The position numbers and the translations under genes were made by a program. Of a stretch of DNA of 64,000 nt, positions 3,248 to 63,700 are shown one piece after another. This DNA is from Macrostomum lignano (Eukaryota): assembly GCA_002269645.1 (NCBI GenBank), contig NIVC01000283.1:62001-126000 (forward strand). Reading direction: 5' to 3'. The notes below the pieces were generated by a model, which searched no databases, was not told where the DNA came from, and saw nothing but the letters and a program-made list of their open reading frames with translations. Each line of letters begins with the position of its first letter. Position 1 is the stretch's first letter.

Positions 3248-4277
3248 TCAAGGAAGCAGATTGAAAAAAGCGCGAATCTGCTGCTCGGTCAGTGAGCCGT
3301 TGGCAATGGCGATGGCGCTCACCGTGCCCTGCAGGGTGAAGTTTACCGATGGAGTCTGGTATCTGCCGATCAGAATCGCCGGGCAGAAGAGCTGCGAGTA
3401 TGAAGCACCGACGTTTCGAGTCACGTTGTAGTCAAAGGACGAGCCACTGAACAGATTGCTGCTGATAGCGTCGGCGCCAATGCTGACTGCGATGTTCACC
3501 CATGAGCTGGAGCTGCTGGTAAGAAATTCACCAGAGGAGTGCAAGAGGACTTTCTGAGCCAGCCTGTTGCTCGTGCCGAAATAAAGTTTGTTGGCAGAAT
3601 TAAATTCAACAAAAAATGGACCGATAATAGAGAAATCCGAACACGAAACCACTGCTATGAAAGGCTGGACCCTCGGCTCCCTTTTGAGCCTCATCAGCCA
3701 AGTAAAGCCGGTAAAAGTATCGATAGAGACGAATCGGCTGTCGTTGAGCAGCGCGTACGACGATGTCCCGTCGAAGCGGGCGCCCTCCTCAGTCCACTGC
3801 AGGTTCGCGCTCTCCAGTCGGTGGCTGCCGCTGTCGCTCTGGCACACCAGGTTGCTGAACCGGCTGCTCCCACCTGCCAGCCACACGCCCACCAGCTGAG
3901 CGTCGAGCGAGGCGTCGCAGCTCGCCAACGACAACGCGCGATACACCGAGCACTGCGACTGCTGCACTGCAGCTCCAGCTCCGATCGCGACGGCACCGCT
4001 TGCCTGCATCGTGCGACACACCTGCTGGTAGTGGAAGAGCGAGCACACACCTGTCTGCTTGTTCCACTCAAGCACCAGGTCGTCAGGCTCGCTGCTCGCT
4101 TTCAACACGCAGGCTTGCAGGCTTTGCGAGCTCCATCGAGTCAGCGCCGAGGTCTCGTTGAGGCAGTGCGGCATCCGGTACTGGCACCAGCGCCTGCTGC
4201 AGCTCGTTGCGACTCAGCCCGATGAAAAGGCAGAGGAGCAGCTGAATTACTGGAGCGATAATTTTGCTGTTGGTCAT
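3248..4277 (-). pseudogene. Secreted PAN/Apple-like + LamG-like (concanavalin A fold) protein, copy 1, with a 1-nt frameshift in the signal peptide (pseudogene or assembly error)
   Basis: ATG at 4277 gives MTNSKIIAPVIQLLLCLFIGL. The homologous frame (VATSCSRRWCQYRMPHC...) has an upstream TGA and needs a frameshift near 4213. LamG_3-like motifs: LVGVW, FDGTSSYALL, FTWLMRL, LIG...LQGTVSAIAIANGSLTEQQI. Paralog of 9011-10054. Confidence 0.7.
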
Positions 4278-9010: not shown

Positions 9011-10054
9011 ATGAGAACAAAAGATATCTTTGCTTTCCTGATGGTGCTTTTATTGGCAGTGGGAAAGGGCACGTCTAAAAGCAGCTGCGGCAGGCGCTGG
9101 TGCCAGTACCGGATGCCGCACTGCCTCAACGAGACCTCGGCGCTGACTCGATGGAGCTCGCAAAGCCTGCAAGCCTGCGTGTTGAAAGCGAGCAGCGAGC
9201 CTGACGACCTGGTGCTTGAGTGGAACAAGCAGACAGGTGTGTGCTCGCTCTTCCACTACCAGCAGGTGTGTCGCACGATGCAGGCAAGCGGTGCCGTCGC
9301 GATCGGAGCTGGAGCTGCAGTGCAGCAGTCGCAGTGCTCGGTGTATCGTGCGTTGTCGTTGGCGAGCTGCGACGCCTCGCTCGACGCTCAGCTGGTGGGC
9401 GTGTGGCTGGCAGGATGGAGCAGCCGGTTCAGCAACCTGGTGTGCCAGAACGACAGCGGCGGCGGCGGCGGCCACCGACTAGAGAGCGCGAACCTGCAGT
9501 GGACTGAGGAGGGCGCCAGCTTCGACGGGACATCGTCGTACGCGCTGCTCAACGACAGTCGCTTCGTCTCGAGCGACCCGTCGGCCAGCTTCACGTGGCT
9601 GATGAGGCTCAGGAGGGAGCCGAAGGTCCAGCCATTCTTAGAAGCCGTTTCCTGCTCAGACATGAGCTCCTTCGGACCTCATCTTTGGGAACATAATTCC
9701 GCAAATAGACTGTACTTCAACAAAGCGGGTCCCTCCTCAGACAGCAGAAACTTTTTATTCTACTCCCAAACTATAAATCTGCTGCCAGCGAGCAGTAAAG
9801 CGTGGATCAACATTGGAGTCTCCGTGAAATTTGGCGAAGTATCTTCATCAGCACTTTTTTATGACGGCAGCTTTGTAGAGGCCGGTGGAATTCGCAGCGT
9901 TGCAAATACTTTTCATTCCTGCCTTGTCCTGTCGGTGGGCCGCCGGTTCTCCGGAAGCGGCTCGACTCTGCGAGGCACCGTGAGAGCTGTGGGGCTGGCC
10001 AACGCCTCAATGACGGAAAAGCAGATTGTCGAGTTCTTTCGCCAGTTGCCATGA
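9011..10054 (+). CDS. Secreted PAN/Apple-like + LamG-like (concanavalin A fold) protein, copy 2, intact, 347 aa, single exon
   Basis: Hydrophobic signal peptide MRTKDIFAFLMVLLLAVG; Cys-containing module SLQACVLKA...EWNKQTGVCSLF; LamG_3-like motifs LVGVW, FDGTSSYALL, SFTWLMRL, LSVG...LRGTVRAVGLANASMTEKQI. Domain names come from motif recognition, not a search. Confidence 0.8.
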   Translation: MRTKDIFAFLMVLLLAVGKGTSKSSCGRRWCQYRMPHCLNETSALTRWSSQSLQACVLKASSEPDDLVLEWNKQTGVCSLFHYQQVCRTMQASGAVAIGAGAAVQQSQCSVYRALSLASCDASLDAQLVGVWLAGWSSRFSNLVCQNDSGGGGGHRLESANLQWTEEGASFDGTSSYALLNDSRFVSSDPSASFTWLMRLRREPKVQPFLEAVSCSDMSSFGPHLWEHNSANRLYFNKAGPSSDSRNFLFYSQTINLLPASSKAWINIGVSVKFGEVSSSALFYDGSFVEAGGIRSVANTFHSCLVLSVGRRFSGSGSTLRGTVRAVGLANASMTEKQIVEFFRQLP

Positions 10055-11939: not shown

Positions 11940-13170
<1,231 letters not shown>

Positions 13171-13390
13171 AAGTGCAAAGCCCCTTCTAGTCGGAAGCCC
13201 GATTTCGAGAGTCCCGGTGTGGTGAGCCAGGGCGCACGGGCTGGTGGCAGCAAGTTAGTTAATCTGCGGATTAGCTAATTTCTACTTTCAAAATTCCTCT
13301 CTTAGCTACAGGACCTAGACTGCTCGCCACACGATCAAGCTACCATGGGGCTGACCATCTGACAGGAGTGGGGGGCCAGGACTCTAATTG

Positions 13391-13480
13391 ATTTATTTCT
13401 GAGACCTGAGGCCCGAAGGCTTCCCCACAAGGGGGCCGGAAGGTCGAAACCCATCACATATTTGGAAATATAGGTTGAAA
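13391..13480 (+). ncRNA. Degenerate type I hammerhead ribozyme candidate (Penelope/retrozyme-like)
   Basis: CTGA (13399), GACCT...AGGTC stem II with inner GGCCC/GGGCC stem, GAAAC (13446), stem III closing on GGT-T (13473-13476). The core lacks 3 nt (CTGA instead of CTGATGA) and stem I is weak. Confidence 0.4.
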
Positions 13481-14694
13481 ACCGGTTTTTCGGACTATGT
13501 AATGATTACTTGCTGTTTATGTAATATTGCATGTATTACTGAAAATATAGAGTATGACGCATGTTAGTTTTTTAAATATTAATCATGTTTTTATCTTACT
13601 ATTTTTAGTAGCCAACTAGGCTTGGAGATCTCTACACACGGAGCAAGTACCAGAAAGATTCTCACTCAGCTTAGATACTAGGAGGTCCCGTCAGTTCATA
13701 CGGTTGTCTCTGACGGCCTGATAGAAGAGTCAAAGAGCTGTCAGAACCTTAGACCGCTAGACCTATTTGCAGAAAGTAAACGCGTACATTATATCTAGTA
13801 TCTGTGGTCAGAAGACATTTTTAACCCCTTAAAATACGCTTCACAGTTTTTATTTTTATGTGGAGGCATTGAGCGCTAGAGAGCTGTTTATTAATACATT
13901 AATACCCATGGTTTAAGGGCGTTAATGGGAAAATCAGAGGGCGCCGTTATAGATCTTGTACGATGTAGCAAGTCGCCCAGATCTGGTAAGTTTACCTAAA
14001 TATTATTATAGCGAAGATCTTGCACGTTCTTTGCAAGTACTTGCGCAGCAACACAAGAAAATAGACAAGATCTGCTAAGAATCTACAAGTCAATGTCTTC
14101 TAGGGACCCAGCAGTCTGCATGATCAAATATGAGATATGATAAAATTAAAAAACAGTAATACGTATACCAAGAAGCTTCAATTTCAACAACTAGCTAGGG
14201 GACCGATAATTTTACATCGGGATCCCAATCCAGTTCTAATAAATTTAATTGAACTAAAAATATTACCTAATTAATCTTTATATGCGTATAAAAACCTTAT
14301 TACTTTCGCTTTTGTTTGCATCTCTTACTTACATACACTTCGTTATACTGCATATAAGTTACGCAATGCAAACCGTGGTAAACTCGTCAACACAGTTGAC
14401 AAGAATAAAAAGTTGACGAGTTTACCCGGATCCGCTAAAAAATCTAATCTTTCTTTTCCCTTCACGCCCAGACTCTGCTCTGGTAAGTCAATTACTGAAG
14501 TTAAATATATTGCTGCCTAGCCTAATTAATTAGTGGTTAGTGCTATTGTTAGGCTAGGGCTCTAAAAATAAATGATAGAAAAACAATAATTGATAGCCAT
14601 GCTGGCCCTACCTAGAGGCAGGGCCTAGGCCTACTACTTTACTTATTTTGATCTTGATATTAGTAATAGATTAGTAATAGTAAAGAATACCACC

Positions 14695-17600
14695 CTCCAA
14701 GTGGCTACTGCGTGGCTGCTCGGACGGACGGCATCCCATACGCCCCAGAGGAAACTGACGCTGCTGCGGCAGCGGCGGACGGAGCTAGCGCTGCCCCCGC
14801 GGCCTTTCAAACTGACGACAATGGCCGTGACAGCAGGGGCCCGATGGCTCGTGCCACGGACAACCGCCGCATTCATCGACCCAACTTCCGCAAGAGACAA
14901 CCAGAAGACCGCCAAACGTGGTGCACAGGCTGCCGGGGCTGCCGCTCCGCGTGCACTGAGCGAGACAAACCCTGGCCTAAACCAGGAACTGCCGTGCCAA
15001 ACATGCCCGAGCGGCCCGCTGAAGACACGAGAGCCCCGGCGTGCGGGAGCACCACCTCCCTAGCCGGAAAAAAAACCAAAAAGGCAAAAAAACATACCGG
15101 CAGGGGGGGGGAGTGATCATCCTCGTGCGCTCCGACGTCAGGTATAGCGAAGAGCGAGACTACCAAAGACCGGACGATAAGCTTGATACGGCGTCTACCA
15201 CCATATTCCCGAAGGGCCAGGCCTCCATCACCCTTGCCAACGTCTACGCGCCCCCAACTAGCTCGCAACGCCAAGAAGCCTGGATCCCTGACCTCTACAG
15301 TTTACCGTCTCGCGGCAATGTGGTGCTTGGAGGAGACTTCAACGCGCACGGCTGCTGGGATAGGTGGATGGAAGAGGATGCGAGGGGCCACGCCATCGAA
15401 GAATGGTGCTCCAACAAAGGCCTCCATATCTGCAATAATGGCCAGCACACTCGCACTAGCCCAGCAACTGGTTCGCGTAAAGCGCCGGACATCACGATCA
15501 GTGGCGGACAGCTCGCGAACTATATCAGCGATCGCTGGAGAACTGAGAAAGACATCGGCAGCGACCATCTGCCCATCTCGTTCCCCCTCGCCGCCGACAA
15601 ACGCCCCCCCCCCAGCATGGCTGCACTCGCTGGAGCTTCCGTAAAGCTGACTGGGGCTGCTTCAGGGCGCACCTGGAAACGATCCAAGGACCTCAAGCCT
15701 GGCCCTCTGCTGACATCGAACGTGAGGCTCTCTGCGCCGACATCCTCGCGGCGGCAGCCATAGCCATCCCCAGAGGTAGCCCCGCCTGCAGGCGCACCCC
15801 TTTTTGGAATGCCGAGTGCGATTCGGCAAGAGCCGCCTGCTCGGAGGCCAGAGAGCGCGCTAAATGCGATCCGTCTACTGTCAATCTCACGGCTTACAAC
15901 CGGGCAAGGCACCAGGCCGGCGCCACCATCAGACGCGAGCGCCAGCGCTTTCTTGAAGAGCGGGCCAGCAACCTCACAGCGGACAGCGACCTGTTTGGCC
16001 TTCTTCGGGTCAGCCGTGGCGACACCGCGCCTGCCCGAGGCAACGTTGATCTCATCAGACGCGATAAGAATGGTGCTGATAAGAATGGACCGGCGAGGAC
16101 CCGTAAGGAGAAAGCGGACGTTTTCTGCCAAATGTACGCGGCCGTGTCGCGGGTACCAAGACGAAAGAGTGACAGCGCCATCAGAAACCAAGCCATTGAA
16201 GCACACAGGAAGGCCCGCCAACCTCCTTCCCTGCTCTCCATGTGTGAGCTTCGCATTGCTCTTAAGAAACTCAAAAGCAGAAAAGCTGCCGGGCCCGATG
16301 GCGTCTGCAATGACATGCTCAAGAGACTGCCCCCCAAGACCGACCAGCGGCTCCTGGACCTCGTCAACCAGACGTGGAGGACCAAACAATTCCCTCGCGC
16401 CTGGCGCAGGGCTATCATTGTGCCTGTTCTCAAGAAAAAACAAGGACGCGTCTGCCCCGGAGTCGTACAGGCCGGTGTCGCTTACCAGCTGCATAGCGAA
16501 ATGCGCTGAGCGCATGGTCCTGGCGCGGCTCATCTACGATCTGGAGTCCAAGGGCCTCCTAAGTACAACGGAGGAGCAACTAGCCCGTGTCTGTCAGGAT
16601 GTCTTCAACGGACTTGAACGTCAACCACCACATCGAAGCATCCTGGCCCAGATGGATTTCAAGGCGGCCTATGACAAAGTCTGGCGCGACGGCCTCACGG
16701 TTAAAATGGACCGTATTGAGACAGACGCGCATATCATCGCCTGGACCCACGCCTTCCTCTCAGACCGGCACGCATGCGTCCGCTACAAAGGCACCTACAG
16801 CCGGCTTCGCGCGTTCCGCGAGGGCCTGCCGCAGGGCTCCGTCCTAGCTCCAATGCTCTTGTGCATCTATGTCAATGACCTCCCGACAGTCATCGCGAGA
16901 GCGGCACCGGACTGCGGCACGAGTCTCTTTGCCGACGACTCGGCGCTCCTCGCCACTCACCGCACCCTCAAAGGTTGTGGGGCCATCCTCCAGCCTGCCT
17001 TGGACGCGGTCGCGGCCTGGTGTCAGGAATGGAAAGTGACGCTTAGCACTAACAAATTCTGCTACACCACATTCACGCTATCACCGGCGGAGGCTAATGG
17101 CAAGCTCAGCGTCTCCCTCACCCTGGCTGGTGAGCAACTCAGCTACTGCAAGAACCCGACTTTCCTGGGGCTCACCCTGGACGACCAGCTCACGTTCCTA
17201 CCCCATGTGAACTCCGTGCGTCGTCGGATGACTCAGCGCCGGAGAGCTCTTGGCAGCTTGGCCTCCAGACGCGCTGGCGCCTCGCAGACCGTGCTCAGGA
17301 CCGCCTATACTGCGACGGTCAGAGCTCTGGCCGAGTACGGTTGTGGGATCTGGGCGGCCAGCGCTGTCCGAGCATTAAGATGCTGATTGAGCAGCAGCAG
17401 AACGCCTGTGCCCGAATCATTACGGGCTGTCTCCTACCCACCCGCGTGACCAGCCTCCTCGCCGTCGCTGACCTGCCACCTTTCAACAACATAGCCCTGG
17501 AACGTGCCGCCTGCCTGAGAGAACGTGTTCTCAGACTCGCCCCAGGCATACCGGCGACAGCCTCGGCGTCGAGGCAGAGTGAGCCCCGCCTCCGCAACCG

Positions 17601-18761
17601 AGCCTTTGAAAGCGAGAGGCGGCAGCAGGCTGAGGATGCTACCAACGTCAGGCAAATGGACCCCGACAAAGGCGGCCGCGCCTTGCTGAAGGTGGAGTAC
17701 CAGCGTCCGCACTGTGGATGCTGGCGATGCTTCAGCCAGGAGCTGTGCACCGGCCTCGACGACCTGGCCAGGGATCCGGTGCAGCCGTGGGTTAACCCGA
17801 AGATCCTCGACGACGGCGGAGGAACCGTCAGCTTCCACCTTGAGTTGGGAGAGACCTGCAGCCGATGGCTCCCCGCCAGCATTAAGAAGGAACCGGCCCA
17901 GCACCTCCTGGCGGCCATGGCGCCGGTGGATATTGAGCTATGGACCGATGGATCGGCCAGTGGTGGTATCAACAACGCGTGGGGCGTGGCTGTGGTCACA
18001 ACGCGCCTTTGGTGCAGCACCGTCGCAGCCCCGGCCGGCCACATCGCCAGCAGCTTCCAGGCCGAAATGGTGGCCATCCAAGCCGGCCTCAGCTACGTCA
18101 ATGAGCTGCCAGCCTGTCACGGCACCACTATTCGCCTCAAAACTGACTCCCAGTCCGCCCTGAGTGCGCTCGAGGCTAGTCCTGGACAGCAAGCCACCGG
18201 CACTGGCCGTAGCTGCTGGGACCTGCTCGCCCTGCTGGCCGCGTCCAGCCGCACCTGCGAAGTCGTCTGGGTGCCCGCGCACTGCGGCATCGGCGATAAC
18301 GAGCGGGCTGACAAGCTAGCCAACAGCGCCAGAAATACCGATCAACAGAACGGGCCAATATTGCTTCAGGCGGCCAAAGCAGCAATCCGAAGAGCGCGCG
18401 TTGCGCTGGACCGTCAACTCGTTGGACCATCATGGAAGAGCCCCCCGAACAATCTCAGCCGGAGCGAGGTGGTGGCCATCAACCAACTGCGGGCCGGCTG
18501 CTCCAGTCTGGCACAGGCCACGCGTCACCGCCTTGGCATCACCGACGACCCGCGGTGCTGGGACTGTGGACTTCCGGACACGGAAGACCACATCCTGCGG
18601 CAATGCCCACGCGGGGATGCGCTCCGCGCCAGACTCCGAGCAGGAGACATCCTTGACCATCCAGAGGACGTGCTAGTGCTCCTGCGCAGGTTGGGGCGTC
18701 TGTGAGCGCCCTCCCCCAGCTGCCGGGGCAGCGTTGTGGGGTGTCGGAAAAAGAAGAAGAA
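14695..18761 (+). mobile_element. Ingi/I-group non-LTR retrotransposon, near full length, frameshifted (APE - RT - RNase H - CCHC)
   Basis: APE motifs NVYAPP, GDFNAH, SDHLPI (15041-15763 frame). RT motifs KAAGPDG, SYRPVSLTS, DFKAAYDKV, GLPQGSVLAP, LFADD. RNase H motifs LWTDGS, QAEMVAI, TDSQSAL, WVPAHCGIGDNERAD. C-terminal CxxC...H...C. (AAG)n tail at 18748-18761. Candidate TSD ACCACC at 14689-14694 and 18762-18767. Confidence 0.92.
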
Positions 18762-18777
18762 ACCACCGCAGCAGCAG

Positions 18778-20734
18778 TCACCGCAGCAACAGATTTGCGG
18801 GTCGATTCGTTGGCCTGGCGTGCGGTAGTCGTCTGCTGACTGGTACGCCATTGAAGTTGGGCTCTCGCAGAGGGCCATGCAAGAAGACCTGATGGTCACC
18901 AGGTGTCGCGGAGAACACCAGGTATCCATTGTCGAATTGCATAGGCCTTGTGAGAGTTGCTCTGGCGTTGCCTTGACAATTAGAGGCCAGCCACTTTAAG
19001 AAATTTATTTGGTTATTATTATTGCAGGTCTCGCCGTCGAAGATGGAAACCACCGGCACGACGTTCTGACGGCCTGCTGTTGTTGCCTACTATTGGCATT
19101 TGTCCTAGCAGCTGACGCATAAGAGCGCCCTAGATCGTCGCGACGTTGGCCAGTACTACCGCGCCCCGCACCGACGTTGCCGCCGCCGTACCGGACGCGG
19201 GAACTGCTAGGCGCTGCAGGACCGGGCGCGCCGGCCGTCTCCCTGATGCCTGGTTGCCCCGGGTTGCCACGCTCGACCACAGGCCCGGCGCGACCATGCC
19301 CATGCCCGTCGTGTGCAACTGCCGTCGTAGTTAGGCCTCCGCGCCCCAGCGTGCCAGTGCCAGGTGGATGCGTCATACTGAAGGTGAGCGAGATTCTGAC
19401 GCCATCCTGGACACCGATAGCTGGGACACTGTGTCGGCACTTTCGTTGGAATGCACTTGCCATAATGATCACGGACCCAGGCTCAGTGCTAAACCGCGCG
19501 ATAACCCTTTGATCGTCATTGCGCACGAATCTCCGTACAGTGCCAAGAGAAACAGTGGCAATTTACGGGTCAACCCCGAGCTCGGGTTTGTCATCGGCGT
19601 GGTAGGAAATTTTATCATCGGCGGTCTCATAAAATTTGATGAGGCACGAATTGAATTTGGGCATGCCGAGGTCTGCGTTAAACTCCAAGAAGTCTCGCAG
19701 GTCCTCGACAGTGCTATACATCATTGGACTGTAGCGGTACACCTGAGTACGAGTAGCTGGGACCGTACCAAATCACCCTGCGCTGCTCGTGCGGCTTATG
19801 CCTAACGGCCTTCGGCAGAAGGTCGGTGATAAGGCGGTCGTACAGGTCTTGTGCTACCGACTCTAGCATCTTGGGGTAGTACTCAAAAATTTATGTCATC
19901 GTAATGCTGGATATTTTCACCGGACTTATCCCGGTGCGTTGGGAAGCCAATTGGACTGATTGTAGTCGGCTGTGTCCTTGTCAGCCTCCATATTGACAGC
20001 ATTGTTAGCCTCGCTTTCAGATCTTTCAGACTGAGCGCTCGGCGGATGCCACAGCACTGGGGGCTTCGGCCAAGCCGGCTCTTTCCAGTACCGTGGGAGA
20101 GCCGCTGGACGCTGAGACATCGGAGTCGGCCGGAATCTCAATTACAGTTGGTGGATCAGTGGCAGCCGGGTTCGAAAGCACCGGTGACCCGGGGACCGAG
20201 AGTCAAGACCCTGGAGTCAAGGTACTAGGCTCAAGCGGCGGCATCGTCTTGTTCGAAGGACCAATAGACGAGCGTCGCTTCTGGGCCGGAGGCATGGGTG
20301 TACGGCTTGTCGTGTTTCTACGAGCTACTAAGTGGTGACGGCCGTTGCACTAGACACCATCTTGCTTGACCAGTCTGAGGACTGTGTAGTATTGGGTTTC
20401 TTACTCGGCAGCTCTGCTAAGCAGATCCTCGTACTTAGTACTCGCGCCACAACAGGCGGTTTGGCGGTTTAGAGCTGCTGATTTGTTCGACGATCGGGCA
20501 GAGTGCGTTCGACGTTGAATGGAGTGGCCAGAAACCGTGCTGCCGGTTCTGGAGATGTAGGTCACGACTAAGGACAGGTAGGAGCACTTTCATGGGGCGG
20601 TATGAGGCGCCATCGTATGGACTGCCTCGCATTCTCCTTTCCATCTCCTCCCCACTCTCCCTCTCACTGCCCGCATCCTCCCCACTCTCCATCTTACTGT
20701 CCGCATCCTCCCTAGCCACCTTACTGTCAGCCAT
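18778..20734 (-). pseudogene. Decayed intronless ORF of about 650 codons with a central AlkB-family (ALKBH2/3-type) 2OG-Fe(II) dioxygenase domain; probable mobile-element ORF
   Basis: Translation of about 19887 down to 19375: EYYPKML...RRVIWYGPSYSYSG, FNSCLIKFY...ISYHADDKPELG.DP*IATVSLG, PGSVIIM...Q...RHSVP...RISLTF. HxD at 19601-19593. Stops at 19716 and 19565 plus frameshifts. Flanked by Ser/Pro and Gly-rich linkers and an SYASAA motif before a globular C-terminal segment. Confidence 0.8.
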
Positions 20735-21548: not shown

Positions 21549-40496
<18,948 letters not shown>

Positions 40497-48734: not shown

Positions 48735-51700
48735 CATGTTAGACACCAAACAACATGTTAGACACAACAGCCTGTTAGACACCAAACAACCTGTTAGACA
48801 CAACAACCTGTTAGACACCAAACAACCTGTTAGACACAACAACCTGTTAGACACCAAACAACCTGTTAGACACCAAACAACCTGTTAGACACCAAACAAC
48901 CTGTTAGACACCAAACAACCTGTTAGACACCAAACAACCTGTTAGACACAAAAACAACCTGTTAGACACAACAGCCTGCTAGACACAACAACCTGTTAGA
49001 CAAAACAACCTGTTAGACACAAAAACAACCTGTTAGACACAACAGCCTGCTAGACACAACAACCTGTTAGACAAAACAACCTGTTAGACACCAAACAACC
49101 TGTTATACAAAACAACCTTTTAGACTCTAAACAACCTGTTAGACAAAACAGCCTGTTAGACACCAAACAACCTGTTAGACACAACAGCCTGCTAGACACA
49201 ACAACCTGTTAGACACCAAACAACCTGTTAGACACCAAACAACCTGTTAGACAAAACAACCTTTTAGACTCTAAACAACCTGTTAGACAAAACAGCCTGT
49301 TAGACACCAAACAACCTGTTAGACAAAACAACCTTTTAGACTCTAAACAACCTGTTAGACACAACAACCTGTTAGACACCAAACAACCTGTTAGACAAAA
49401 CAACCTTTTAGACTCTAAACAACCTGGTAGACAAAACAGCCTGTTAGACACCAAACAACCTGTTAGACACAACAGCCTGTTAGACACAACAGCCTGCTAG
49501 ACACAACAACCCGTTAGACACCAAACAACCTGTTAGACACAACAGCCTGTTAGACACAACAGCCTGCTAGACACAACAACCTGTTAGACTCAAACAACCT
49601 GTTAGACACAACAGCCTGTTAGACACAACAGCCTGCTAGACACAACAACCCGTTAGACACCAAACAACCTGTTAGACACAACAACCTGTTAGACACAACA
49701 GCCTGCTAGACACAACAACCCGTTAGACACCAAACAACCTGTTAGAAACAACAACCTGTTAGACACAACAGCCTGCTAGACACAACAACCTGTTAGACAC
49801 CAAACAGCCTGCTAGACACAACAACCCGTTAGACACCAAACAACCTGTTAGACACAACAACCTGTTAGACACGAAACAACCTGTTAGACACCAAACAACC
49901 TTTTAGACACAAAAACAAACTGTTAGACACAACAGCCTGCTAGACACAACAACCGGTTAGACAAAACAACCTGTTAAACACCAAACAACCTGTTAGACAC
50001 AACAGCCTGTTAGACACAACAACCTGTTAGACACCAAACAACCTGTTAGACACCAAACAACCTGTTAGACACCAAACAACCTTTTAGACACAAAAACAAA
50101 CTGTTAGACACAACAGCCTGCTAGACACAACAACCTGTTAGACAAAATAACCTGTTAGACACCAAACAACCTGTTAGACACAACAACTTGTTAGACACCA
50201 AACAACCTGTTAGACAAAACAACCTTTTAGACTCTAAACAACCTGGTAGACAAAACAGCCTGTTAGACACCAAACAACCTGTTAGACACAACAGCCTGTT
50301 AGACACCAAACAACCTGTTAGACACAACAGCCTGTTAGACACAACAGCCTGCTAGACACAACAACCCGTTAGACACCAAACAACCTGTTAGACACAACAG
50401 CCTGTTAGACACAACAGCCTGCTAGACACAACAACCTGTTAAACACCAAACAACCTGTTAGACACAACAACCTGTTAGACACAACAGCCTGCTAGACACA
50501 ACAAAACGTTAGACACCAAACAACCTGTTAGACACCAAACAACCTGTTAGACACAACAGCCTGCTAGACACAACAACCTGTTAGACACCAAACAGCCTGC
50601 TAGACACAACAACCCGTTAGACACCAAACAACCTGTTAGACACAACAGCCTGTTAGACACAAAAACAACCTGTTAGACACAACAGCCTGCTAGACACAAC
50701 AACCTGTTAGACAAAACAACCTGTTAGACACCAAACAACCTGTTAGACAAAACAACCTTTTAGACTTTAAACAACCTGTTCGACAAAACAGCCTGTTAGA
50801 CACCAAACAACCTGTTAGACACAACAGCCTGTTAGACACCAAACAACATGTTAGACACCAAACAACCTGTTAGACACCAAACAACCTGTTAGACAAAACA
50901 ACCTTTTAGACTCTAAACAACTTGTTAGACAAAACAGCCTGTTAGACACCAAACAACCTGTTAGACACGAAACAACCTGTTAGACACCAAACAACCTTTT
51001 AGACACAAAAACAAACTGTTAGACACAACAGCCTGCTAGACACAACAACCTGTTAGACAAAACAACCTGTTAGACACCAAACAACCTGTTAGACACAACA
51101 ACCTGTTAGACACCAAACAACCTGTTAGACAAAACAACCTTTTAGACTCTAAACAACCTGGTAGACAAAACAGCCTCTTAGACACCAAACAACCTGTTAG
51201 ACACAACAGCCTGTTAGACACAACAGCCTGCTAGACACAACAACCCGTTAGACACCAAACAACCTGTTAGACACAACAGCCTGTTAGACACAACAGCCTG
51301 CTAGACACAACAACCCGTTAGACACCAAACAACCTGTTAGACACAACAGCCTGTTAGACAGAACAGCCTGCTAGACACAACAACCCGTTAGACACCAAAC
51401 AACCTGTTAGACACAACAACCTGTTTGACACAACAGCCTGCTAGACACAACAACCTGTTAGACACGAAACAACCTGTTAGACACCAAACAACCTTTTAGA
51501 CACAAAAACAAACTGTTAGACACAACAGCCTGCTAGACACAACAACCTGTTAGACAAAACAACCTGTTAGACACCAAACAACCTGTTAGACACAACAACC
51601 TGTTAGACACCAAACAACCTGTTAGACAAAACAACCTTTTAGACTCTAAACAACCTGGTAGACAAAACAGCCTCTTAGACACCAAACAACCTGTTAGACA

Positions 51701-54700
51701 CCAAACAACCTGTTAGACACCAAACAACCTGTTAGACACCAAACAACCTGTTAGACACAACAGCCTGCTAGACACAACAACCTGTTAGACAAAACAACCT
51801 GTTAGACACCAAACAACCTGTTATACAAAACAACCTTTAAGACTCTAAACAACCTGTTAGACAAATCAGCCTGTTAGACACCAAACAACATGTTAGACAC
51901 AACAGCCTGTTAGACACAAAAACAACCTGTTAGACACAACAGCCTGTTAGACACAACAGCCTGCTAGACACAACAACCTGTTAGACACCAAACAACCTGT
52001 TAGACACAACAACCTGTTAGACACAACAGCCTGCTAGACACAACAACCCGTTAGACACCAAACAACCTGTTAGACACAACAACCTGTTAGACACAACAGC
52101 CTGTTAGACACAACAACCTGTTAGACACCAAACAGCCTGCTAGACACAACAACCCGTTAGACACCAAACAACCTGTTAGACAAAACAACCTGTTAGACAC
52201 AACAGCCTGCTAGACACAACAACCTGTTAGACAAAACAACCTTTTAGACTCTAAACAACCTGTTAGACAAAACAGCCTGTTAGACACCAAACAACCTGTT
52301 AGACACAACAGCCTGCTAGACACAACAACCCGTTAGACACCTAACAACCTGTTAGACACAACAGCCTGCTAGACACAACAACCTGTTAGACACCAAACAA
52401 CCTGTTAGACACAACAACCTGTTAGACACAACAGCCTGCTAGACACAACAACCCGTTAGACACCAAACAACCTGTTAGACACAATAACCTGTTAGACACA
52501 ACAGCCTGCTAGACACAACAACCCGTTAGACACCAAACAACCTGTTAGATAAAACAACCTGTTAGACACCAAACAACCTGTTAGACAAAACAAGCTTTTA
52601 GACTCTAAACAACCTGTTAGACAAAACAGCCTGTTAGACACCAAACAACCTGTTAGACACAACAGCCTGTTAGACACCAAACAGCCTGTTAGACACCAAA
52701 CAACCTGTTAGACACAACAACCTGTTAGACACCAAACAACCTGTTAGACACCAAACAACCTGTTAGACACCAAACAACCTGTTAGACACCAAACAACCTG
52801 TTAGACACCAAACAACCTGTTAGACACAAAAACAACCTGTTAGACACAAAAGCCTGCTAGACACAACAACCGGTTAGACAAAACAACCTGTTAAACACCA
52901 AACAACCTGTTAGACAAAACAACCTTTTAGACACCAAACAACCTGTTAGACACTAAACAACCTGTTAGACACCAAACAACCTGTTAGACACCAAACAACC
53001 TGTTAGACACCAAACAACCTGTTAGACAAAACAACCTGTTAGACACCAAACAACCTGTTATACAAAACAACCTTTTAGACTCTAAACAACCTGTTAGACA
53101 AAACAGCCTGTTAGACACCAAACAACCTGTTAGACACAACAGCCTGTTAGACACAACAACCTGTTAGACACCAAACAACCTGTTAGACATCAAACAACCT
53201 GTTAGACAAAACAACCTTTTAGACTCTAAACAACCTGTTAGACAAAACAGCCTGTTAGACACCAAACAACCTGTTAGTCACAACAGCCTGTTAGACACAA
53301 CAGCCTGCAAGACACAACAACCCGTTAGACACCAAACAACCTGTTAGACAAAACAACCTTTTAGACACAAAAACAAACTGTTAGACACAACAGCCTGCTA
53401 GACACAACAGCCTGCTAGACAAAACAACCTTTTAGACTCTAAACAACCTGTTAGACACAACAACCTGTTAGACACAACAGCCTGCTAGACACAACAACCT
53501 GTTAGACACCAAACAACCTGTTAGACACAACAACCTGTTAGACACAACAGCCTGCTAGACACAACAACCGTTAGACACAAAACAACCTGTTAGACACAAC
53601 AGCCTGTTAGACACAACAGCCTGCTAGACACAACAACCCGTTAGACACCAAACAACCTGTTAGACACAACAGCCTGTTAGACACAACAGCCTGCTAGACA
53701 CAACAACCTGTTAGACACCTAACAACCTGTTAGACACAACAGCCTGTTAGACACAACAGCCTGCTAGACACAACAACCCGTTAGACACCAAACAACCTGT
53801 TAGACACAACAACCTGTTAGACACAACAACCGTTAGACACCAAACAACCTGTTAGAACAACAACCTGTTAGACACAACAGCCTGCTAGACACAACAACCT
53901 GTTAGACACAAACAGCCTGCTAGACACAACAACCTTAGACACCAAACAACCTGTTAGACACAACAACCTGTTAGACACAAACAACCTGTTAGACACCAAA
54001 CAACCTTTAGACACAAAAACAAACTGTTAGACACAACAGCCTGCTAGACACAACAACCTGTTAGACAAAACAACCTGTTAGACACCAAACAACCTGTTAG
54101 ACACAACAACCTGTTAGACACCAAACAACCTGTTAGACAAAACAACCTTTTAGACTCTAAACAACCTGTAGACAAAACAGCCTGTTAGACACCAAACAAC
54201 CTGTTAGACACCAAACAACCTGTTAGACACCAAACAACCTGTTAGACACCAAACAACCTGTTAGACACCAAACAACCTGTTAGACACCAAACAACCTTTT
54301 AGACACAAACAACTGTTAGACACAACAGCCTGCTAGACACAACAACCTGTTAGACAAAACAACCTGTTAGACACCAAACAACCTGTTAGACACAACAACC
54401 TGTTAGACACCAAACAACCTGTTAGACAAAACAACCTTTTAGACTCTAAACAACCTGGTAGACAAAACAGCCTGTTAGACACCAAACAACCTGTTAGACA
54501 CAACAGCCTGTTAGACACAACAGCCTGCTAGACACAACAACCTGTTAGACACCAAACAACCTGTTAGACACAACAGCCTGTTAGACACAACAGCCTGCTA
54601 GACACAACAACCTGTTAGACACCAAACAACCTGTTAGACACAACAACCTGTTAGACACAACAGCCTGCTAGACACAACAACCCGTTAGACACCAAACAAC

Positions 54701-57700
54701 CTGTTAGACACCAAACAACCTGTTAGACACAACAGCCTGTTAGACACAACAACCTGTTAGACACAAACAGCCTGCTAGACACAACAACCTGTTAGACACC
54801 AAACAACCTGTTAGACACAACAACCTGTTAGACACAACAGCCTGTTAGACACAACAACCTGTTAGACACAAACAACCTGTTAGACACAACAGCCTGTTAG
54901 ACACCAAACAACCTGTTAGACACAACAGCCTGCTAGACACAACAACCTGTTAGACAAAACAACCTGTTAGACACCAAACAACCTGTTAGACACAACAACC
55001 TGTTAGACAAAACAACCTGTTAGACACCAAACAACCTGTTAGACACAAACAACCTGTTAGACACAAACAACCTGTTAGACAAAACCCTGTTAGACACCAA
55101 ACAACCTGTTAGACACAAACAACCTGTTAGACACAAACAACCTGTTAGACAAAACAACCTGTTAGACAAAACAACCTGTTAGACACCAAACAACCTGTTA
55201 GACACAACAACCTGTTAGACACAACAGCCTGTTAGACACAAACAACCTGTTAGACAAAACAACCTGTTAGACACCAAACAACCTGTTAGACACAACAACC
55301 TGTTAGACACCAAACAACCTGTTAGACAAAACAACCTGTTAGACACTAAACAACCTGTTAGACACAACAACCTGTTAGACACCAAACAACCTGTTAGACA
55401 AACAACCTTAGACTCAAACAACCTGTTAGACAAAACAACCTGTTAGACACCAAACAACCTGTTAGACACAACAGCCTGCTAGACACAACAACCCGTTAGA
55501 CACCAAACAACCTGTTAGACACAACAGCCTGTTAGACACAACAGCCTGCTAGACACAACAACCGTTAGACACCAAACAACCTGTTAGACACAACAACCTG
55601 TTAGACACAACAGCCTGCTAGACACAACAACCTGTTAGACACCAAACAACCTGTTAGACACAACAACCTGTTAGACACAACAGCCTGTTAGACACAACAA
55701 CCTGTTAGACACCAACAGCCTGTTAGACACAACAACCTGTTAGACACCAAACAACCTGTTAGACACAACAACCTGTTAGACACAACAACCTGTTAGACAC
55801 CAAACAACCTGTTAGACACAAACAGCCTTTAGACACAAAACCTGTTAGACAAAACAACCTGTTAGACACCAAACAACCTGTTAGACAAAACAACCTGTTA
55901 GACACAAACAACCTGTTAGACAAAACAACCTGTTAGACACCAAACAACCTGTTAGACACAACAACCTGTTAGACACAAACAACCTGTTAGACACAAACAA
56001 CCTGTTAGACACCAAACAACCTGTTAGACACCAAACAACCTGTTAGACACAACAGTTAGACACAACAACCTGTTAGACAAAACAACCTGTTAGACACCAA
56101 ACAACCTGTTAGACAAACAACCTTTAGACACAAACAACCTGTTAGACAAAACAGCCTGTTAGACACCAAACAACCTGTTAGACACAACAGCCTGTTAGAC
56201 AAACAACCTGTTAGACACAACAACCTGTTAGACACCAAACAACCTGTTAGACACAACAACCTGTTAGACACAACAGCCTGCTAGACACAACAACCTGTTA
56301 GACACCAAACAGCCTGCTAGACACAACAACCCGTTAGACACCAAACAACCTGTTAGACACAACAACCTGTTAGACACAACAGCCTGTTAGACACCAAACA
56401 ACCTGTTAGACACAACAGCCTGCTAGACACAACAACCTGTTAGACAAACAACCTGTTAGACACCAAACAACCTGTTAGACAAACAACCTTTAGACACAAA
56501 CAACCTGTTAGACAAAACAGCCTGTTAGACACCAAACAACCTGTTAGACACAACAGCCTGTTAGACACAAACAACCTGTTAGACAAAACAACCTGTTAGA
56601 CACCAAACAACCTGTTAGACACAACAGCCTGTTAGACACAACAACCTGTTAGACACCAAACAACCTGTTAGACACCAAACAACCTGTTAGACACCAAACA
56701 ACCTGTTAGACACAACAGCCTGCTAGACACAACAACCTGTTAGACAAACAACCTGTTAGACACCAAACAACCTGTTAGACAAAACAACCTTTAGACACAA
56801 CAACCTGTTAGACAAAACAACCTGTTAGACACCAAACAACCTGTTAGACACAACAGCCTGTTAGACACAAACAACCTGTTAGACACAACAGCCTGTTAGA
56901 CACAAACAACCTGCTTAGACACAACAACCTGTTAGACACCAAACAACCTGTTAGACACAACAACCTGTTAGACACAACAGCCTGCTAGACACAACAACCT
57001 GTTAGACACCAAACAACCTGTTAGACACAAACAACCTGTTAGACACAAACAACCTTAGACACAAAACCTGTTAGACACAACAGCCTGCTAGACACAACAA
57101 CCTGTTAGACAAAACAACCTGTTAGACACAAACAACCTGTTAGACACAACAACCTGTTAGACACAAACAACCTGTTAGACAAAACAACCTGTTAGACACA
57201 AACAACCTGTTAGACACAACAACCTGTTAGACAAAACAACCTGTTAGACACAAACAACCTGTTAGACACAACAGCCTGTTAGACACAAACAGCCTGTTAG
57301 ACACAACAACCTGTTAGACACAACAACCTGTAGACACAACAACCTGTTAGACACCAAACAACCTGTTAGACACAACAACCTGTTAGACACAACAGCCTGC
57401 TAGACACAACAACCTGTTAGACACAAACAACCTGTTAGACACAACAACCTGTTAGACACAAACAGCCTGCTAGACACAACAACCTGTTAGACACCAAACA
57501 ACCTGTTAGACACAACAACCTGTTAGACACCAAACAACCTGTTAGACACAACAACCTGTTAGACACAAACAACCTGTTAGACACAACAGCCTGTTAGACA
57601 CAAACAACCTGTTAGACACAACAGCCTGTTAGACACAAACAACCTGTTAGACACAACAACCTGTTAGACACAAACAACCTGTTAGACAAAACAACCTGTT

Positions 57701-60700
57701 AGACACCAAACAACCTGTTAGACAAAACAGCCTGTTAGACACCAAACAACCTGTTAGACAAAACAGCCTGTTAGACACCAAACAACCTGTTAGACACAAC
57801 AACCTGTTAGACACCAAACAACCTGTTAGACAAAACAACCTGTTAGACACCAAACAACCTGTTAGACAAAACAGCCTGTTAGACACTAAACAACCTGTTA
57901 GACAAAACAGCCTGTTAGACACCAAACAACCTGTTAGACACAAACAACCTGTTAGACACAAACAACCTTTTAGACACAACACCTGTTAGACACAACAACC
58001 TGTTAGACACAAACAACCTGTTAGACAAAACAACCTGTTAGACACAAACAACCTGTTAGACACAACAACCTGTTAGACACCAACAACCTGTTAGACAAAA
58101 CAACCTGTTAGACTCAAACAACCTGTTAGACACAACAACCTGTTAGACACCAAACAACCTGTTAGACACAACAACCTGTTAGACACAACAGCCTGCTAGA
58201 CACAACAACCCTGTTAGACACCAAACAACCTGTTAGACACAACAGCCTGTTAGACACAACAGCCTGCTAGACACAACAACCCGTTAGACACCAAACAACC
58301 TGTTAGACACAACAGCCTGTTAGACACAACAGCCTGCTAGACACAACAACCCGTTAGACACCAAACAACCTGTTAGACACAACAACCTGTTTGACACAAC
58401 AGCCTTCTAGACACAACAACCTGTTAGACACCAAACAGCCTGCTAGACACAACAACCCGTTAGACACCAAACAACCTGTTAGACACAACAACCTGTTAGA
58501 CACAACAGCCTGTTAGACACCAAACAACCTGTTAGACACAACAGCCTGCTAGACACAACAACCTGTTAGACAAAACAACCTGTTAGACACCAAACAACCT
58601 GTTAGACAAAACAACCTTTTAGACTCTAAACAACCTGTTAGACAAAACAGCCTGTTAGACACCAAACAACCTGTTAGACACAACAGCCTGTTAGACACAA
58701 CAACCTGTTAGACACCAAACAACCTGTTAGACACCAAACAACCTGTTAGACACCAAACAACCTGTTAGACACCAAACAACCTGTTAGACACCAAACAACC
58801 TGTTAGACACCAAACAACCTGTTAGACACCAAACAACCTGTTAGACACCAAACAACCTGTTAGACACAACAGCCTGCTAGACACAACAACCTGTTAGACA
58901 AAACAACCTGTTAGACACCAAACAACCTGTTAGACAAAACAACCTTTAGACTCAAACAACCTGTTAGACAAACAGCCTGTTAGACACCAAACAACCTGTT
59001 AGACACAACAGCCTGTTAGACACAAACAACCTGTTAGACACAACAGCCTGTTAGACACAACAGCCTGCTAGACACAACAACCTGTTAGACACCAAACAAC
59101 CTGTTAGACACAACAACCTGTTAGACACAACAGCCTGCTAGACACAACAACCCGTTAGACACCAAACAACCTTTTAGACACAACAACCTGTTAGACACAA
59201 CAGCCTGCTAGACACAACAACCTGTTAGACACCAAACAGCCTGCTAGACACAACAACCCGTTAGACACCAAACAACCTGTTAGACAAAACAACCTGTTAG
59301 ACACAACAGCCTTTTAGACTCTAAACAACCTGTTAGACAAAACAGCCTGTTAGACACCAAACAACCTGTTAGACAAAACAACCTTTTAGACTCTAAACAA
59401 CCTGTTAGACACAACAACCTGTTAGACACCAAACAACCTGTTAGACAAAACAACCTTTTAGACTCTAAACAACCTGGTAGACAAAACAGCCTGTTAGACA
59501 CCAAACAACCTGTTAGACACAACAGCCTGTTAGACACAACAGCCTGCTAGACACAACAACCCGTTAGACACCAAACAACCTGTTAGACACAACAGCCTGC
59601 TAGACACAACAACCTGTTAGACACCAAACAACCTGTTAGACACAACAACCTGTTAGACACAACAGCCTGCTAGACACAACAACCCGTTAGACACCAAACA
59701 ACCTGTTAGACACAACAACCTGTTAGACACAACAGCCTGCTAGACACAACAACCGTTAGACACCAAACAACCTGTTAGACAAAACAACCTGTTAGACACC
59801 AAACAACCTGTTAGACAAAACAGCCTGTTAGACACCAAACAACCTGTTAGACACAACAGCCTGTTAGACACCAAACACCTGTTAGACACCAAACAACCTG
59901 TTAGACACAACAACCTGTTAGACACCAAACAACCTGTTAGACACCAAACAACCTGTTAGACACCAAACAACCTGTTAGACACAAACAACCTGTTAGACAC
60001 CAAACAACCTGTTAGACACAAACAACCTGTTAGACACAACAGCCTGCTAGACACAACAACCTGTTAGACAAAACAACCTGTTAGACACCAAACAACCTGT
60101 TAGACAAAACAACCTTTTAGACACCAAACAACCTGTTAGACACTAAACAACCTGTTAGACACCAAACAACCTGTTAGACACAAAAACAACCTGTTAGACA
60201 CAACAACCTGTTAGACACCAAACAACCTGTTAGACACCAAACAACCTGTTAGACACCAAACAACCTGTTAGACAAAACAACCTGTTAGACACCAAACAAC
60301 CTGTTAGACAAAACAACCTTTAGACTCTAAACAACCTGTTAGACAAAACAGCCTGTTAGACACCAAACAACCTGTTAGACACAACAGCCTGTTAGACACA
60401 ACAACCTGTTAGACACCAAACAACCTGTTAGACACCAAACAACCTGTTAGACAAAACAACCTTTTAGACTCTAAACAACCTGTTAGACAAAACAGCCTGT
60501 TAGACACCAAACAACCTGTTAGACAAAACAACCTTTTAGACTCTAAACAACCTGTTAGACACAACAACCTGTTAGACACCAAACAACCTGTTAGACAAAA
60601 CAACCTTTAGACTCTAAACAACCTGTAGACAAACAACCTGTTAGACACCAAACAACCTGTTAGACAAAACAACCTGTTAGACACAACAGCCTGCTAGACA

Positions 60701-63700
60701 CAACAACCTGTTAGACACCAAACAACCTGTTAGACAAAACAACCTTTAGACACAAACAACCTGTTAGACACAACAGCCTGCTAGACACAACAGCCTGCTA
60801 GACAAAACAACCTTTTAGACTCTAAACAACCTGTTAGACACAACAACCTGTTAGACACAACAGCCTGCTAGACACAACAACCTGTTAGACACCAAACAAC
60901 CTGTTAGACACAACAACCTGTTAGACACAACAGCCTGCTAGACACAACAACCGTTAGACACCAAACAACCTGTTAGACACAACAACCTGTTAGACACAAC
61001 AGCCTGCTAGACACAACAACCGTTAGACACCAAACAACCTGTTAGAAACAACAACCTGTTAGACACAACAGCCTGCTAGACACAACAACCTGTTAGACAA
61101 AACAACCTGTTAGACACAAACAACCTGTTAGACACAACAGCCTGCTAGACACAACAACCTGTTAGACACCAAACAACCTGTTAGACACAACAGCCTGTTA
61201 GACACAACAGCCTGCTAGACACAACAACCCGTTAGACACCAAACAACCTGTTAGACACAACAGCCTGTTAGACACAACAGCCTGCTAGACACAACAACCT
61301 GTTAGACACCTAACAACCTGTTAGACACAACAGCCTGTTAGACACAACAGCCTGCTAGACACAACAACCCGTTAGACACCTAACAACCTGTTAGACACAA
61401 CAGCCTGTTAGACACAACAGCCTGCTAGACACAACAACCCGTTAGACACCAAACAACCTGTTAGACACAACAACCTGTTAGACACAACAACCCGTTAGAC
61501 ACCAAACAACCTGTTAGACACAACAACCTGTTAGACACAACAGCCTGCTAGACACAACAACCTGTTAGACACCAAACAACCTGTTAGACACAACAACCTG
61601 TTAGACACCAAACAACCTGTTAGACACAACAACCTGTTAGACACAAACAACCTGTTAGACACCAAACAACCTTTTAGACACAAACAACCTGTTAGACACA
61701 ACAGCCTGTTAGACACAACAACCTGTTAGACAAAACAACCTGTTAGACACCAAACAACCTGTTAGACACAACAACCTGTTAGACACCAAACAACCTGTTA
61801 GACAAAACAACCTTTTAGACTCTAAACAACCTGTTAGACAAAACAGCCTGTTAGACACCAAACAACCTGTTAGACACAAACAACCTGTTAGACACCAAAC
61901 AACCTGTTAGACAAAACAACCTGTTAGACACCAAACAACCTGTTAGACAAAACAACCTTTAGACACCAAACAACCTGTTAGACACCAAACAGCCTGTTAG
62001 ACACCAAACAACCTGTTAGACACAAACAACCTGTTAGACACCAAACAACCTGTTAGACACAAACAACCTGTTAGACACCAAACAACCTGTTAGACACAAA
62101 CAACCTTTTAGACACAAACAACCTGTTAGACACAACAGCCTGTTAGACACAAACAACCTGTTAGACAAAAAACCTGTTAGACACAAACAACCTGTTAGAC
62201 ACAACAACCTGTTAGACACCAAACAACCTGTTAGACAAACAACCTGTTAGACACAACAACCTGCTAGACACAACAACCTGTTAGACACCAAACAACCTGT
62301 TAGACACAACAGCCTGTTAGACACAACAGCCTGCTAGACACAACAACCTGTTAGACACCAAACAACCTGTTAGACACAACAACCTGTTAGACACAACAGC
62401 CTGCTAGACACAACAACCTGTTAGACACCAAACAACCTGTTAGACACAACAACCTGTTAGACACAACAGCCTGCTAGACACAACAACCTGTTAGACACAA
62501 ACAACCTGTTAGACACAACAACCTGTTAGACACAACAGCCTGTTAGACACCAAACAACCTGTTAGACACAACAGCCTGTAGACACAACAACCTGTTAGAC
62601 AAAACAACCTGTTAGACACCAAACAACCTGTTAGACACAACAGCCTTTAGACACAACAACCTGTTAGACAAAACAACCTGTTAGACACCAAACAACCTGT
62701 TAGACACAAACAACCTGTTAGACACCAACAACCTGTTAGACACAAACAGCCTGTTAGACACAAACAACCTGTTAGACAAAACAACCTGTTAGACACCAAA
62801 CAACCTGTTAGACAAACAACCTTTAGACACTAAACAACCTGTTAGACAAATCAGCCTGTTAGACACCAAACAACCTGTTAGACACAACAGCCTGTTAGAC
62901 ACAAAAACAACCTGTTAGACACAACAGCCTGTTAGACACAACAGCCTGCTAGACACAACAACCTGTTAGACACCAAACAACCTGTTAGACACAACAACCT
63001 GTTAGACACAACAGCCTGCTAGACACAACAACCCGTTAGACACCAAACAACCTGTTAGACACAACAACCTGTTAGACACAACAGCCTGCTAGACACAACA
63101 ACCTGTTAGACACCAAACAGCCTGCTAGACACAACAACCCGTTAGACACCAAACAACCTGTTAGACAAAACAACCTGTTAGACACAACAGCCTGCTAGAC
63201 ACAACAACCTGTTAGACAAAACAACCTTTTAGACTCTAAACAACCTGTTAGACAAAACAGCCTGTTAGACACAAACAACCTGTTAGACAAAACAACCTTT
63301 TAGACTCTAAACAACCTGTTAGACACAACAACCTGTTAGACACCAAACAACCTGTTAGACAAAACAACCTTTTAGACTCTAAACAACCTGGTAGACAAAA
63401 CAGCCTGTTAGACACCAAACAACCTGTTAGAGACAACAGCCTGTTAGACACAACAGCCTGCTAGACACAACAACCCGTTAGACACAAAACAACCTGTTAG
63501 ACACAACAGCCTGCTAGACACAACAACCTGTTAGACACCAAACAACCTGTTAGACACAACAACCTGTTAGACACAACAGCCTGCTAGACACAACAACCTG
63601 TTAGACACCAAACAACCTGTTAGACACAACAACCTGTTAGACACAACAGCCTGCTAGACACAACAACCCGTTAGACACCAAACAACCTGTTAGACACAAC

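Follow-up and report, generated by a model that had tools for sequence, protein, structure and literature searches.

A decayed reading frame in Macrostomum lignano points to a family of probable LINE ORF1 proteins with a predicted ALKBH3-like dioxygenase

The stretch of DNA analysed here (the window, 64,000 nt of Macrostomum lignano) carries on its minus strand the remains of a gene, dead and cut short at the 3' end. Intact relatives of this gene code for an ALKBH3-like dioxygenase with a pair of predicted RRMs and then three CCHC knuckles behind it. We consider it probable that these proteins are ORF1 products of a LINE, with an RNA-binding part that would keep the enzyme on the RNA of the same element, where it would remove m1A and m3C that stall the reverse transcriptase. 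Both modifications are found on the pairing face of the base and block reverse transcriptases. The window copy, being dead, matters only as a pointer, and the finding is the family. A preliminary description of the locus had proposed the ORF1 or gag of a mobile element with its own demethylase. This proposal is supported by the domain layout, in which AlkB is joined to two predicted RRMs and three knuckles; the RRM/knuckle module matches ORF1s preceding APE-RT ORF2s.

The copy in the window

By inspection of the window, the reading frame has its ATG at 20734 and its TGA at 18780-18778 (minus strand). Both triplets, and the decay, are as first described, but the ca. 650 codons do not form one ORF, as the 1957-nt span from ATG to TGA lies in several frames and requires at least 8 stops or frame changes (minimum-break count). 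The start codon is putative, since the 5' part (20734-19890) has no tblastn match at E<0.5 to any of 8 relatives. This presumed 5' part of ORF1 (19891 to 20734) is of low complexity (acidic, Ser, Pro and Ala residues) and has at least 4 breaks; the GC content climbs from ca. 0.35 to 0.53-0.60 below ca. 20700. Its acidic repeat (20646-20712, 2.2 copies) has a unit of 30 nt and therefore of 10 amino acids, not the 11 initially reported. It is followed by the ALKBH2/3-type Fe(II)/2-oxoglutarate dioxygenase domain (19362 to 19890; Pfam, phmmer, tblastn to relatives and alignment), by a Gly/Ala/Pro-rich linker ending in SYASAAR (19069 to 19361), with a frameshift near 19088 and disordered counterparts in the relatives, and by the first RRM of the ORF1 protein (18802 to 19068; family profile iE 8e-20, AlphaFold model and structural matches). 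All the motifs quoted for the locus can be read on the minus strand (WYGPSYSYSG, FNSCL, HADD, IATVSLG, HSVP, RISLTF, SYASAAR and VVSIFDGE...FLKWLASNCQG...NGYLVFSA). The lack of introns holds as well, with the homologue P0154 collinear with the window at 19881-19723, 19718-19365 and 19044-18805.

Homology ends in a short degenerate triplet repeat (18762 to 18801) that contains the TGA, and the second RRM, the knuckles and ORF2 are absent. The intact relatives extend 200-470 aa past the last residue matching the window, so this TGA is not the natural end of the protein. Profiles of the second RRM, the knuckles and the C-terminus found no match in the 64-kb window (best iE 0.95, 4.6 and 35), and for this reason we regard the copy as a truncated homologue and not as a complete type I ORF1. 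It is dead and 3'-truncated after the first RRM, and no termini or target-site duplication of its own were recognisable.

The dioxygenase domain, which had been described as complete, is indeed present in full length, but a frameshift near 19716 and a stop at 19565-19563 interrupt it, and in R-x-x-L-T-F-R the final Arg has become Ser. The metal triad (H-x-D at 19601-19593, His at 19433) and the first Arg (19397) are kept. Pfam 2OG-FeII_Oxy_2 is found on both window fragments below the cut-off (E 1.2e-4 and 1.2e-3), and the best solved relative is human ALKBH3 (phmmer, E 1.6e-9). This domain is identical to P0003 at 69% of 103 aligned aa, and to the M. lignano protein P0004 at 53% of 175.

These breaks are genuine decay and not assembly errors. 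Contigs from all four sequencing runs compared (four studies, with the window perhaps derived from one of these runs) cross 19458-20081 without a gap, hence both frameshifts of the AlkB region are shared, and one contig of 1290 nt (18792-20081) shows 0 differences from the window. While the frameshifts are common to the runs, the stop at 19565-19563 is polymorphic, with a sense codon in two of them. Contig depth over the ORF is within ca. 2-fold of the unique flank, as against 30-1000x deeper coverage at 13050-14290; depth is not copy number, but the near-flank level suggests that this subfamily is not abundant. A joint between 19012 and 19193, found in 4/4 runs, hints at a paralogue, but the depth is near flank level.

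Relatives and domain layout

A phmmer search against the full library (1.84 billion representatives) gave ca. 2780 matches, and seven of the top nine were element-like, ranking above most of these AlkB matches. Element-like top matches (P0003-P0006, P0008 and P0009) were judged by architecture or naming, P0003, a fragment, by its closeness; P0007 and P0010, also among the top matches, are stand-alone proteins of bacterial type, and P0150 appeared at rank 148. P0008, P0009, P0150, P0157 and P0158 are Logan records, the last of them being the one new full-length member that a profile search added among the matches listed (120 of 711). In the databases searched the family amounts to four full-length proteins and one near-complete. 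P0004, P0005 and the cluster members P0153-P0155 are "hypothetical proteins" of M. lignano, five near-copies on three contigs of which three lose the frame at the end and one is partial, and to these the P0003 subfamily must be added. The M. lignano contigs concerned are those of PAA49615, PAA61448 and PAA54533-5. Frameshifted near-copies are what would be expected of element debris, and the number of copies in this genome could come partly from genome duplication or sequencing indels.

The four intact relatives (P0008, P0009, P0150 and P0158; 757-962 aa) share the order AlkB, linker, RRM, RRM and three CCHC knuckles, with the knuckles behind two predicted beta-alpha-beta-beta-alpha-beta domains. 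Three knuckles are present in each of the four, while P0154 has one before the frame is lost; Pfam zf-CCHC passes its cut-off in P0158 only. In the AlphaFold model of P0009 (from a 5-row alignment) the two RRM-like folds are predicted at 314-383 and 414-489 with a local pLDDT of ca. 60-88 (57.5 for the whole protein), and the linker at 221-309 stays below 50. The last domain of the window copy aligns with P0154 (41%, E 4e-16) and P0150 (38%, E 1e-13) in the corresponding position, behind the linker that follows AlkB. The preliminary description had left it as a globular C-terminal segment, and the fold comparison identifies it as an RRM: the AlphaFold model has the beta-alpha-beta-beta-alpha-beta topology (pLDDT 74), and nearly all the structures that it matches are RRMs, the best with Z 9.3 and 9.2 (the background of the tool is 7-8), including U2AF65 RRM1 (Z 9.2, rmsd 2.5 over 76 residues). 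With Foldseek the best E was 0.04.

Three lineages can be told apart (M. lignano with the window; P0008/P0009; P0150/P0158), with AlkB domains 35-42% identical and RRMs 29-39% identical. Such low identity in both parts indicates that the fusion is old and that its active site has been retained. H-x-D, the distal His and both Arg of R-x-x-L-T-F-R are kept in 13 of 13 relative rows (near-duplicates included), so that the catalytic residues are intact in the relatives, and the window copy has lost the last Arg alone.

Several searches came back empty. A word-index protein search with two window fragments found no match among longer proteins, where the full HMMER search did, and the Atlas held no usable match for the window RRM. 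Scans of metagenomes with P0154 (0 of 193 candidates confirmed) and of viral contigs with P0003 (0 of 13) detect close relatives only, and the two blanks are accordingly weak.

Class of the element

RRMs directly before CCHC knuckles define the type I ORF1p of LINEs (PMC4120745). This type, established by Khazina and Weichenrieder and summarised in the same paper, is known from the non-LTR retrotransposons I, Jockey, R1, Tad1, plant L1 and some L2/CR1. The present proteins resemble it in this arrangement and in their homology to ORF1s that precede APE-RT ORF2s, and differ in their N-terminal ALKBH3-like dioxygenase. In the Atlas, P0150 375-640 has eukaryotic clusters for neighbours, among them zf-CCHC and PRE_C2HC proteins named "nucleic-acid-binding protein from transposon X-element" (0.91-0.94). 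When metagenomes were scanned for the module, 16 loci were found, five of which match the part with the second RRM and the knuckles over >80 residues. In four of these (L001-L004) an APE ORF2 stands directly behind (three with RT, one with RNase H), and the contig of the fifth ends too soon. The order behind the module of L002 is APE-RT-RNase H, and the ORF1 of this locus is related to the family by hhalign (98.7%, E 2e-16). AlkB was carried by none of the 16 loci. The module is read as LINE ORF1 because these AlkB-less relatives sit directly before APE(-RT) ORF2s. A non-LTR element (LINE) with a type I ORF1p is thus the most likely class, and from the AlkB-less relatives we infer that an APE-RT ORF2 would follow the AlkB-bearing ORF1s.

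One of the two better-placed alternatives, to which we give a small chance, is that the family consists of ORF1 alone, either as a non-autonomous element moved by the ORF2 of another LINE or as an ORF1-derived repair gene domesticated by the host, the window copy then being a dead duplicate. The ORF2 context does come from AlkB-less relatives alone, three of the four intact proteins are from contigs of 3.8-4.9 kb, and the depth at the window locus is low. Against this, near-copies with frameshifts are found on several contigs, divergence between the closest subfamilies amounts to 31-47% inside one organism group, which suggests element-like turnover, the AlkB-less relatives of the module do have an ORF2 behind them, and the contig of P0150 (9,079 nt) has room for a two-ORF element.

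Relationships and substrate of the dioxygenase

The more careful of two trees had 46 rows. Near-duplicates and the greater part of the 233 background rows were left out of it, and 40 background rows were picked by hand, 2 of which had no long enough domain. In this tree the seven ORF1 AlkBs group together, apart from 38 stand-alone AlkBs, with moderate support (91/81), and the AlkB of P0156 is sister to that branch (95/90). A first tree of 137 rows by a quick method agrees (11 ORF1 rows, SH-aLRT 90). These branches are relative to rows with no identified animal ALKBH2/3 among them. The family profile scores ALKBH3 at 143 bits, ALKBH2 at 111 and E. coli AlkB at 25, with proteins other than ALKBH2/3 at 26 or less, and the comparison of folds gives a similar ranking (ALKBH3 Z 23.8, ALKBH2 Z 22.5, all others at most 16.9). 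By profile and modelled fold we assign the domain to the ALKBH2/3 subfamily, nearest to ALKBH3 and then to ALKBH2. With the human enzymes (PDB 8jnk, 2iuw and 3bty) it shares the fold (Z 22-24), 30-34% identity, the metal ligands and the 2-oxoglutarate arginines. They are, however, stand-alone cellular enzymes without fusion to RRMs or knuckles, and the F1 hairpin is shortened in the lineage of the window.

This hairpin sets the preference for double or single strands in ABH2 and ABH3: ALKBH2 handles dsDNA by means of a hydrophobic F1 wedge, and ALKBH3 prefers ssDNA and RNA, as described in PMC2965238. The present family has a polar F1 region like that of ALKBH3. With a crude pattern match, the F1 finger (a hydrophobic pair, Gly and a basic residue) was detected in none of 11 family rows (0 of 11), whereas 138 of the 175 stand-alone rows that could be scored (233 examined) have it. 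From the likeness to ALKBH3 and the missing double-strand wedge of ALKBH2, the substrate would be single-stranded RNA or first-strand cDNA. Repair is a likelier role than the anti-silencing suggested in the preliminary description, since the domain resembles ALKBH3/2 and not ALKBH5/FTO.

An equally modest chance has to be left for a second alternative, namely that the proteins are indeed LINE ORF1 fusions but the enzyme works on DNA or on a regulatory mark. It would then mend 3-methylcytosine at the nicked target or in freshly made cDNA, or remove m6A/6mA and so evade host control, which is what has been proposed for the Gypsy enzyme of orchids. ALKBH2 is nearly equal to ALKBH3 by fold, M. lignano keeps DNMT1/3, makers of 3mC as off-target damage (PMC9246332, where ALKB2 is also noted as retained), and according to a review fusions of the ALKBH3 clade may demethylate m6A in DNA (PMC4738411). 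However, ALKBH5 and FTO are distant (Z ca. 16, 18-20% identity), the double-strand wedge is absent, and the partner of the enzyme in the fusion is an RNA-binding module.

Proposed role and known systems

LINE ORF1 proteins act in general in cis, that is, on their own transcript. ORF1p is described as an RNA-binding chaperone (PMC4120745), and under the reading that we prefer, in which the AlkB-bearing ORF1p serves its own LINE, the protein would coat the element's transcript by means of its RRMs and knuckles. This coating would bring the dioxygenase onto the element RNA, where it would oxidise the methyl groups of m1A and m3C on the single-stranded RNA of the RNP before it is copied. A fuller version, to which we would give slightly less than an even chance, is that of an old animal LINE lineage in which every ORF1p subunit bears an ALKBH3-like demethylase to clean the template ahead of target-primed reverse transcription and in which methyl damage to RNA truly limits retrotransposition; since the sister P0156 belongs to a second, unrelated element-like protein, the enzyme would also have passed between retroelement classes.

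If these ideas are true, the conserved AlkB of ORF1p would serve self-repair and would reach the element RNA in many copies, and a single point mutant would suffice to ask whether RNA alkylation damage, or an m1A/m3C mark written by the host, limits retrotransposition. The same limit has been argued for the AlkBs of plant viruses. There is also a note of caution, as some "ALKBH2/3" annotations in such genomes would be element proteins.

LINE ORF1 proteins are RNA chaperones that sometimes have PHD, esterase or helicase domains. Insect Jockey LINEs with a virus-like SF1 helicase inserted in ORF1 (PMC5563155) are a similar case, in that their ORF1 has also taken up an enzyme domain, though a different one. 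The best functional model is provided by the AlkB of plant RNA viruses, also selfish RNA replicons, in which the domain would protect the RNA template (PMC2553587); the viral domain belongs to a replicase, whereas here the context is one of RRMs and CCHC knuckles and the closest solved relative is ALKBH3. The one retrotransposon with AlkB that the literature search returned is a group of Ty3/Gypsy elements (Tat/Ogre-related) of the orchid Phalaenopsis (PMC9289625), which likewise carry a nucleic-acid demethylase of the AlkB family. According to the same source, these plant LTR elements have it as a separate extra ORF, ALKBH5-like, and its activity as an m6A eraser was shown; our case is likely an animal LINE, with a predicted enzyme that is ALKBH3-like and fused into ORF1p.

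A survey of 448 Jockey-group ORF1s has in its main text no mention of AlkB, oxygenase or demethylase (PMC4120745), and AlkB has 0 occurrences in the main texts of this paper and of PMC6431247, PMC5563155, PMC11203168, PMC5203782 and PMC12801592. The ALKBH3 fusions given in a review have PHD, SAD/SRA and AT-hook partners, and none from ORF1 (PMC4738411). No fusion of AlkB to ORF1p was found in searches of openly available full texts. A retroelement with a captured AlkB was thus already known, and what appears to be new is its fusion into ORF1p, a layout absent from the literature searched, though it would be less new if Repbase or supplementary files already mention an AlkB.

Genomic neighbourhood of the window copy

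The preliminary description saw no linked pol ORF. There is in fact a full EN-RT-RNase H element whose tail ends 20 nt from the TGA of the AlkB ORF, but it is on the opposite strand and appears to be a separate LINE. This decayed LINE (14690 to 18761, plus strand) lies tail-to-tail with the AlkB ORF and consists of an APE endonuclease (15023-15760), an RT (15764-17383) and an RNase H (17134-18702), with Pfam E values of 2e-17, 2e-25 and 2e-11, and an A/GAA-rich tail (18746-18761). A possible target-site duplication of 11-12 nt (ca. 14683-14694 and 18757-18767) is matched or bettered by 92 of 2950 random pairs. We treat the element as a later, separate insertion, and our guess is that it belongs to Ingi, a clade whose elements lack an ORF1 (PMC3708506). 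As to its history, the AlkB copy would have inserted close behind a host gene, then lost all that follows the first RRM and decayed, after which the second LINE would have inserted beside the break. We also considered that the AlkB unit might resume beyond this LINE, below 14690, and rejected it, the sequence there being AT-rich and without ORF1 or ORF2 remnant.

That the plus-strand frame is instead the AlkB ORF's own ORF2, now inverted, is very improbable. It does lie 20 nt from the end of the ORF and has the domain order found behind L002, but the missing second RRM and knuckles would be expected at ca. 14700-15100, where the profiles match nothing, the LINE possesses a tail of its own, turned towards the ORF, along with the possible and weak target-site duplication, and its 3' end at 18712 is ca. 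10x deeper than the ORF. Slightly less credible still, in our estimation, is a processed pseudogene of a host ALKBH2/3 with flanks gathered by chance, in spite of the intronless, decayed, low-depth and clearly ALKBH3-like copy. Among the proteins compared, the nearest AlkBs belong to ORF1-type fusion proteins, and the downstream RRM is common to relatives that continue into a second RRM and knuckles; since the closest relatives share these ORF1 domains, the case that the preliminary description had named as contrary to its proposal is not what was found. Least probable of all is an endogenous viral element derived from the replicase of an AlkB-bearing RNA virus, an option also raised at first that has found no support: plant flexi- and related viruses do have RNA-preferring AlkB domains (PMC2553587), but the flanks of AlkB here are RRM and CCHC, and neither the window fragments nor the relatives give a Pfam match to a methyltransferase, helicase or RdRp.

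The host gene, of which the last exons were delimited (21549 to 24800, minus strand), has its stop codon at 21551-21549, 815 nt upstream of the ATG of the AlkB ORF and on the same strand. Its GT-AG introns give one open frame; it has no PDB match and in Pfam a single sub-threshold match (DUF7085, E 0.002). The AlkB stretch is absent from every run on record as RNA. In one contig from X11, a run for which RNA is only a guess, the last intron of the host gene is removed, joining 21656 to 22198, and the cover continues from that exon into the AlkB ORF, which is possibly read-through of the host transcript and not expression of the element.

AlkB in another protein architecture

Two Logan records, P0156 (1012 aa) and P0006 (569 aa), carry an AlkB that is placed by the AlkB tree as sister (support 95/90) of the clade of AlkB domains fused to RRMs and CCHC knuckles in ORF1-like proteins. 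The layout of these two proteins differs from that of the ORF1 fusions, with a helical N-terminal segment and an alpha/beta C-terminal segment; neither RRM nor knuckles were found in them, and AlkB was the sole domain matched in a Pfam scan. The flanking segments look like the ORF1 and the SGNH esterase found in some Penelope-like or CR1/L2 elements, and P0156 and P0006 may stand for a second class of retroelement that carries this AlkB enzyme.

Surroundings of the decayed AlkB frame

Upstream of the dead ORF (the decayed, 3'-truncated AlkB-RRM frame at 20734-18778, minus strand) there is a multi-exon host gene (21549-27300, minus), the C-terminus of which may resemble DNAAF9/C20orf194 and the only Pfam match of which, below the cut-off, was DUF7085 (E 0.002). 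In one sequencing run, guessed to be RNA, cover ran from the last exon of this gene into the dead ORF, which may therefore be located in an extended 3' UTR. In 4/4 runs, contigs matched both sides of the dead ORF's linker (joint at 19012-19193), the sequence between being unknown; this is consistent with a paralogous copy with a diverged linker.

The adjoining LINE (14690-18761, plus) is a decayed, almost full-length element; it has APE, RT and RNase H as well as a CCHC-like motif at the C-terminus, and an ORF1 was not seen in it. Its 3' end was ca. ten times deeper than its body in run contigs (a depth, not a copy number), an excess that suggests truncated copies, or a SINE with the same tail.

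Two intronless ORFs, 3248-4213 (minus) and 9011-10054 (plus), are similar and oppositely oriented; each begins with what looks like a signal peptide and seems lectin- or LamG-like overall. A Pfam scan of one gave no match. Another (33032-34588, plus), to our eye resembling a seven-transmembrane receptor, had no Pfam match at E 0.01.

Very high-copy repeat(s) at 13050-14290 reached 30-1000 times the flanking depth in the runs, with numerous joints and loose ends, and contained no 100-aa ORF. A 15 kb satellite (48737-64000; 860 copies of 17/18-nt units) extends past the window end, and many other minisatellites (16-38 nt) are present.
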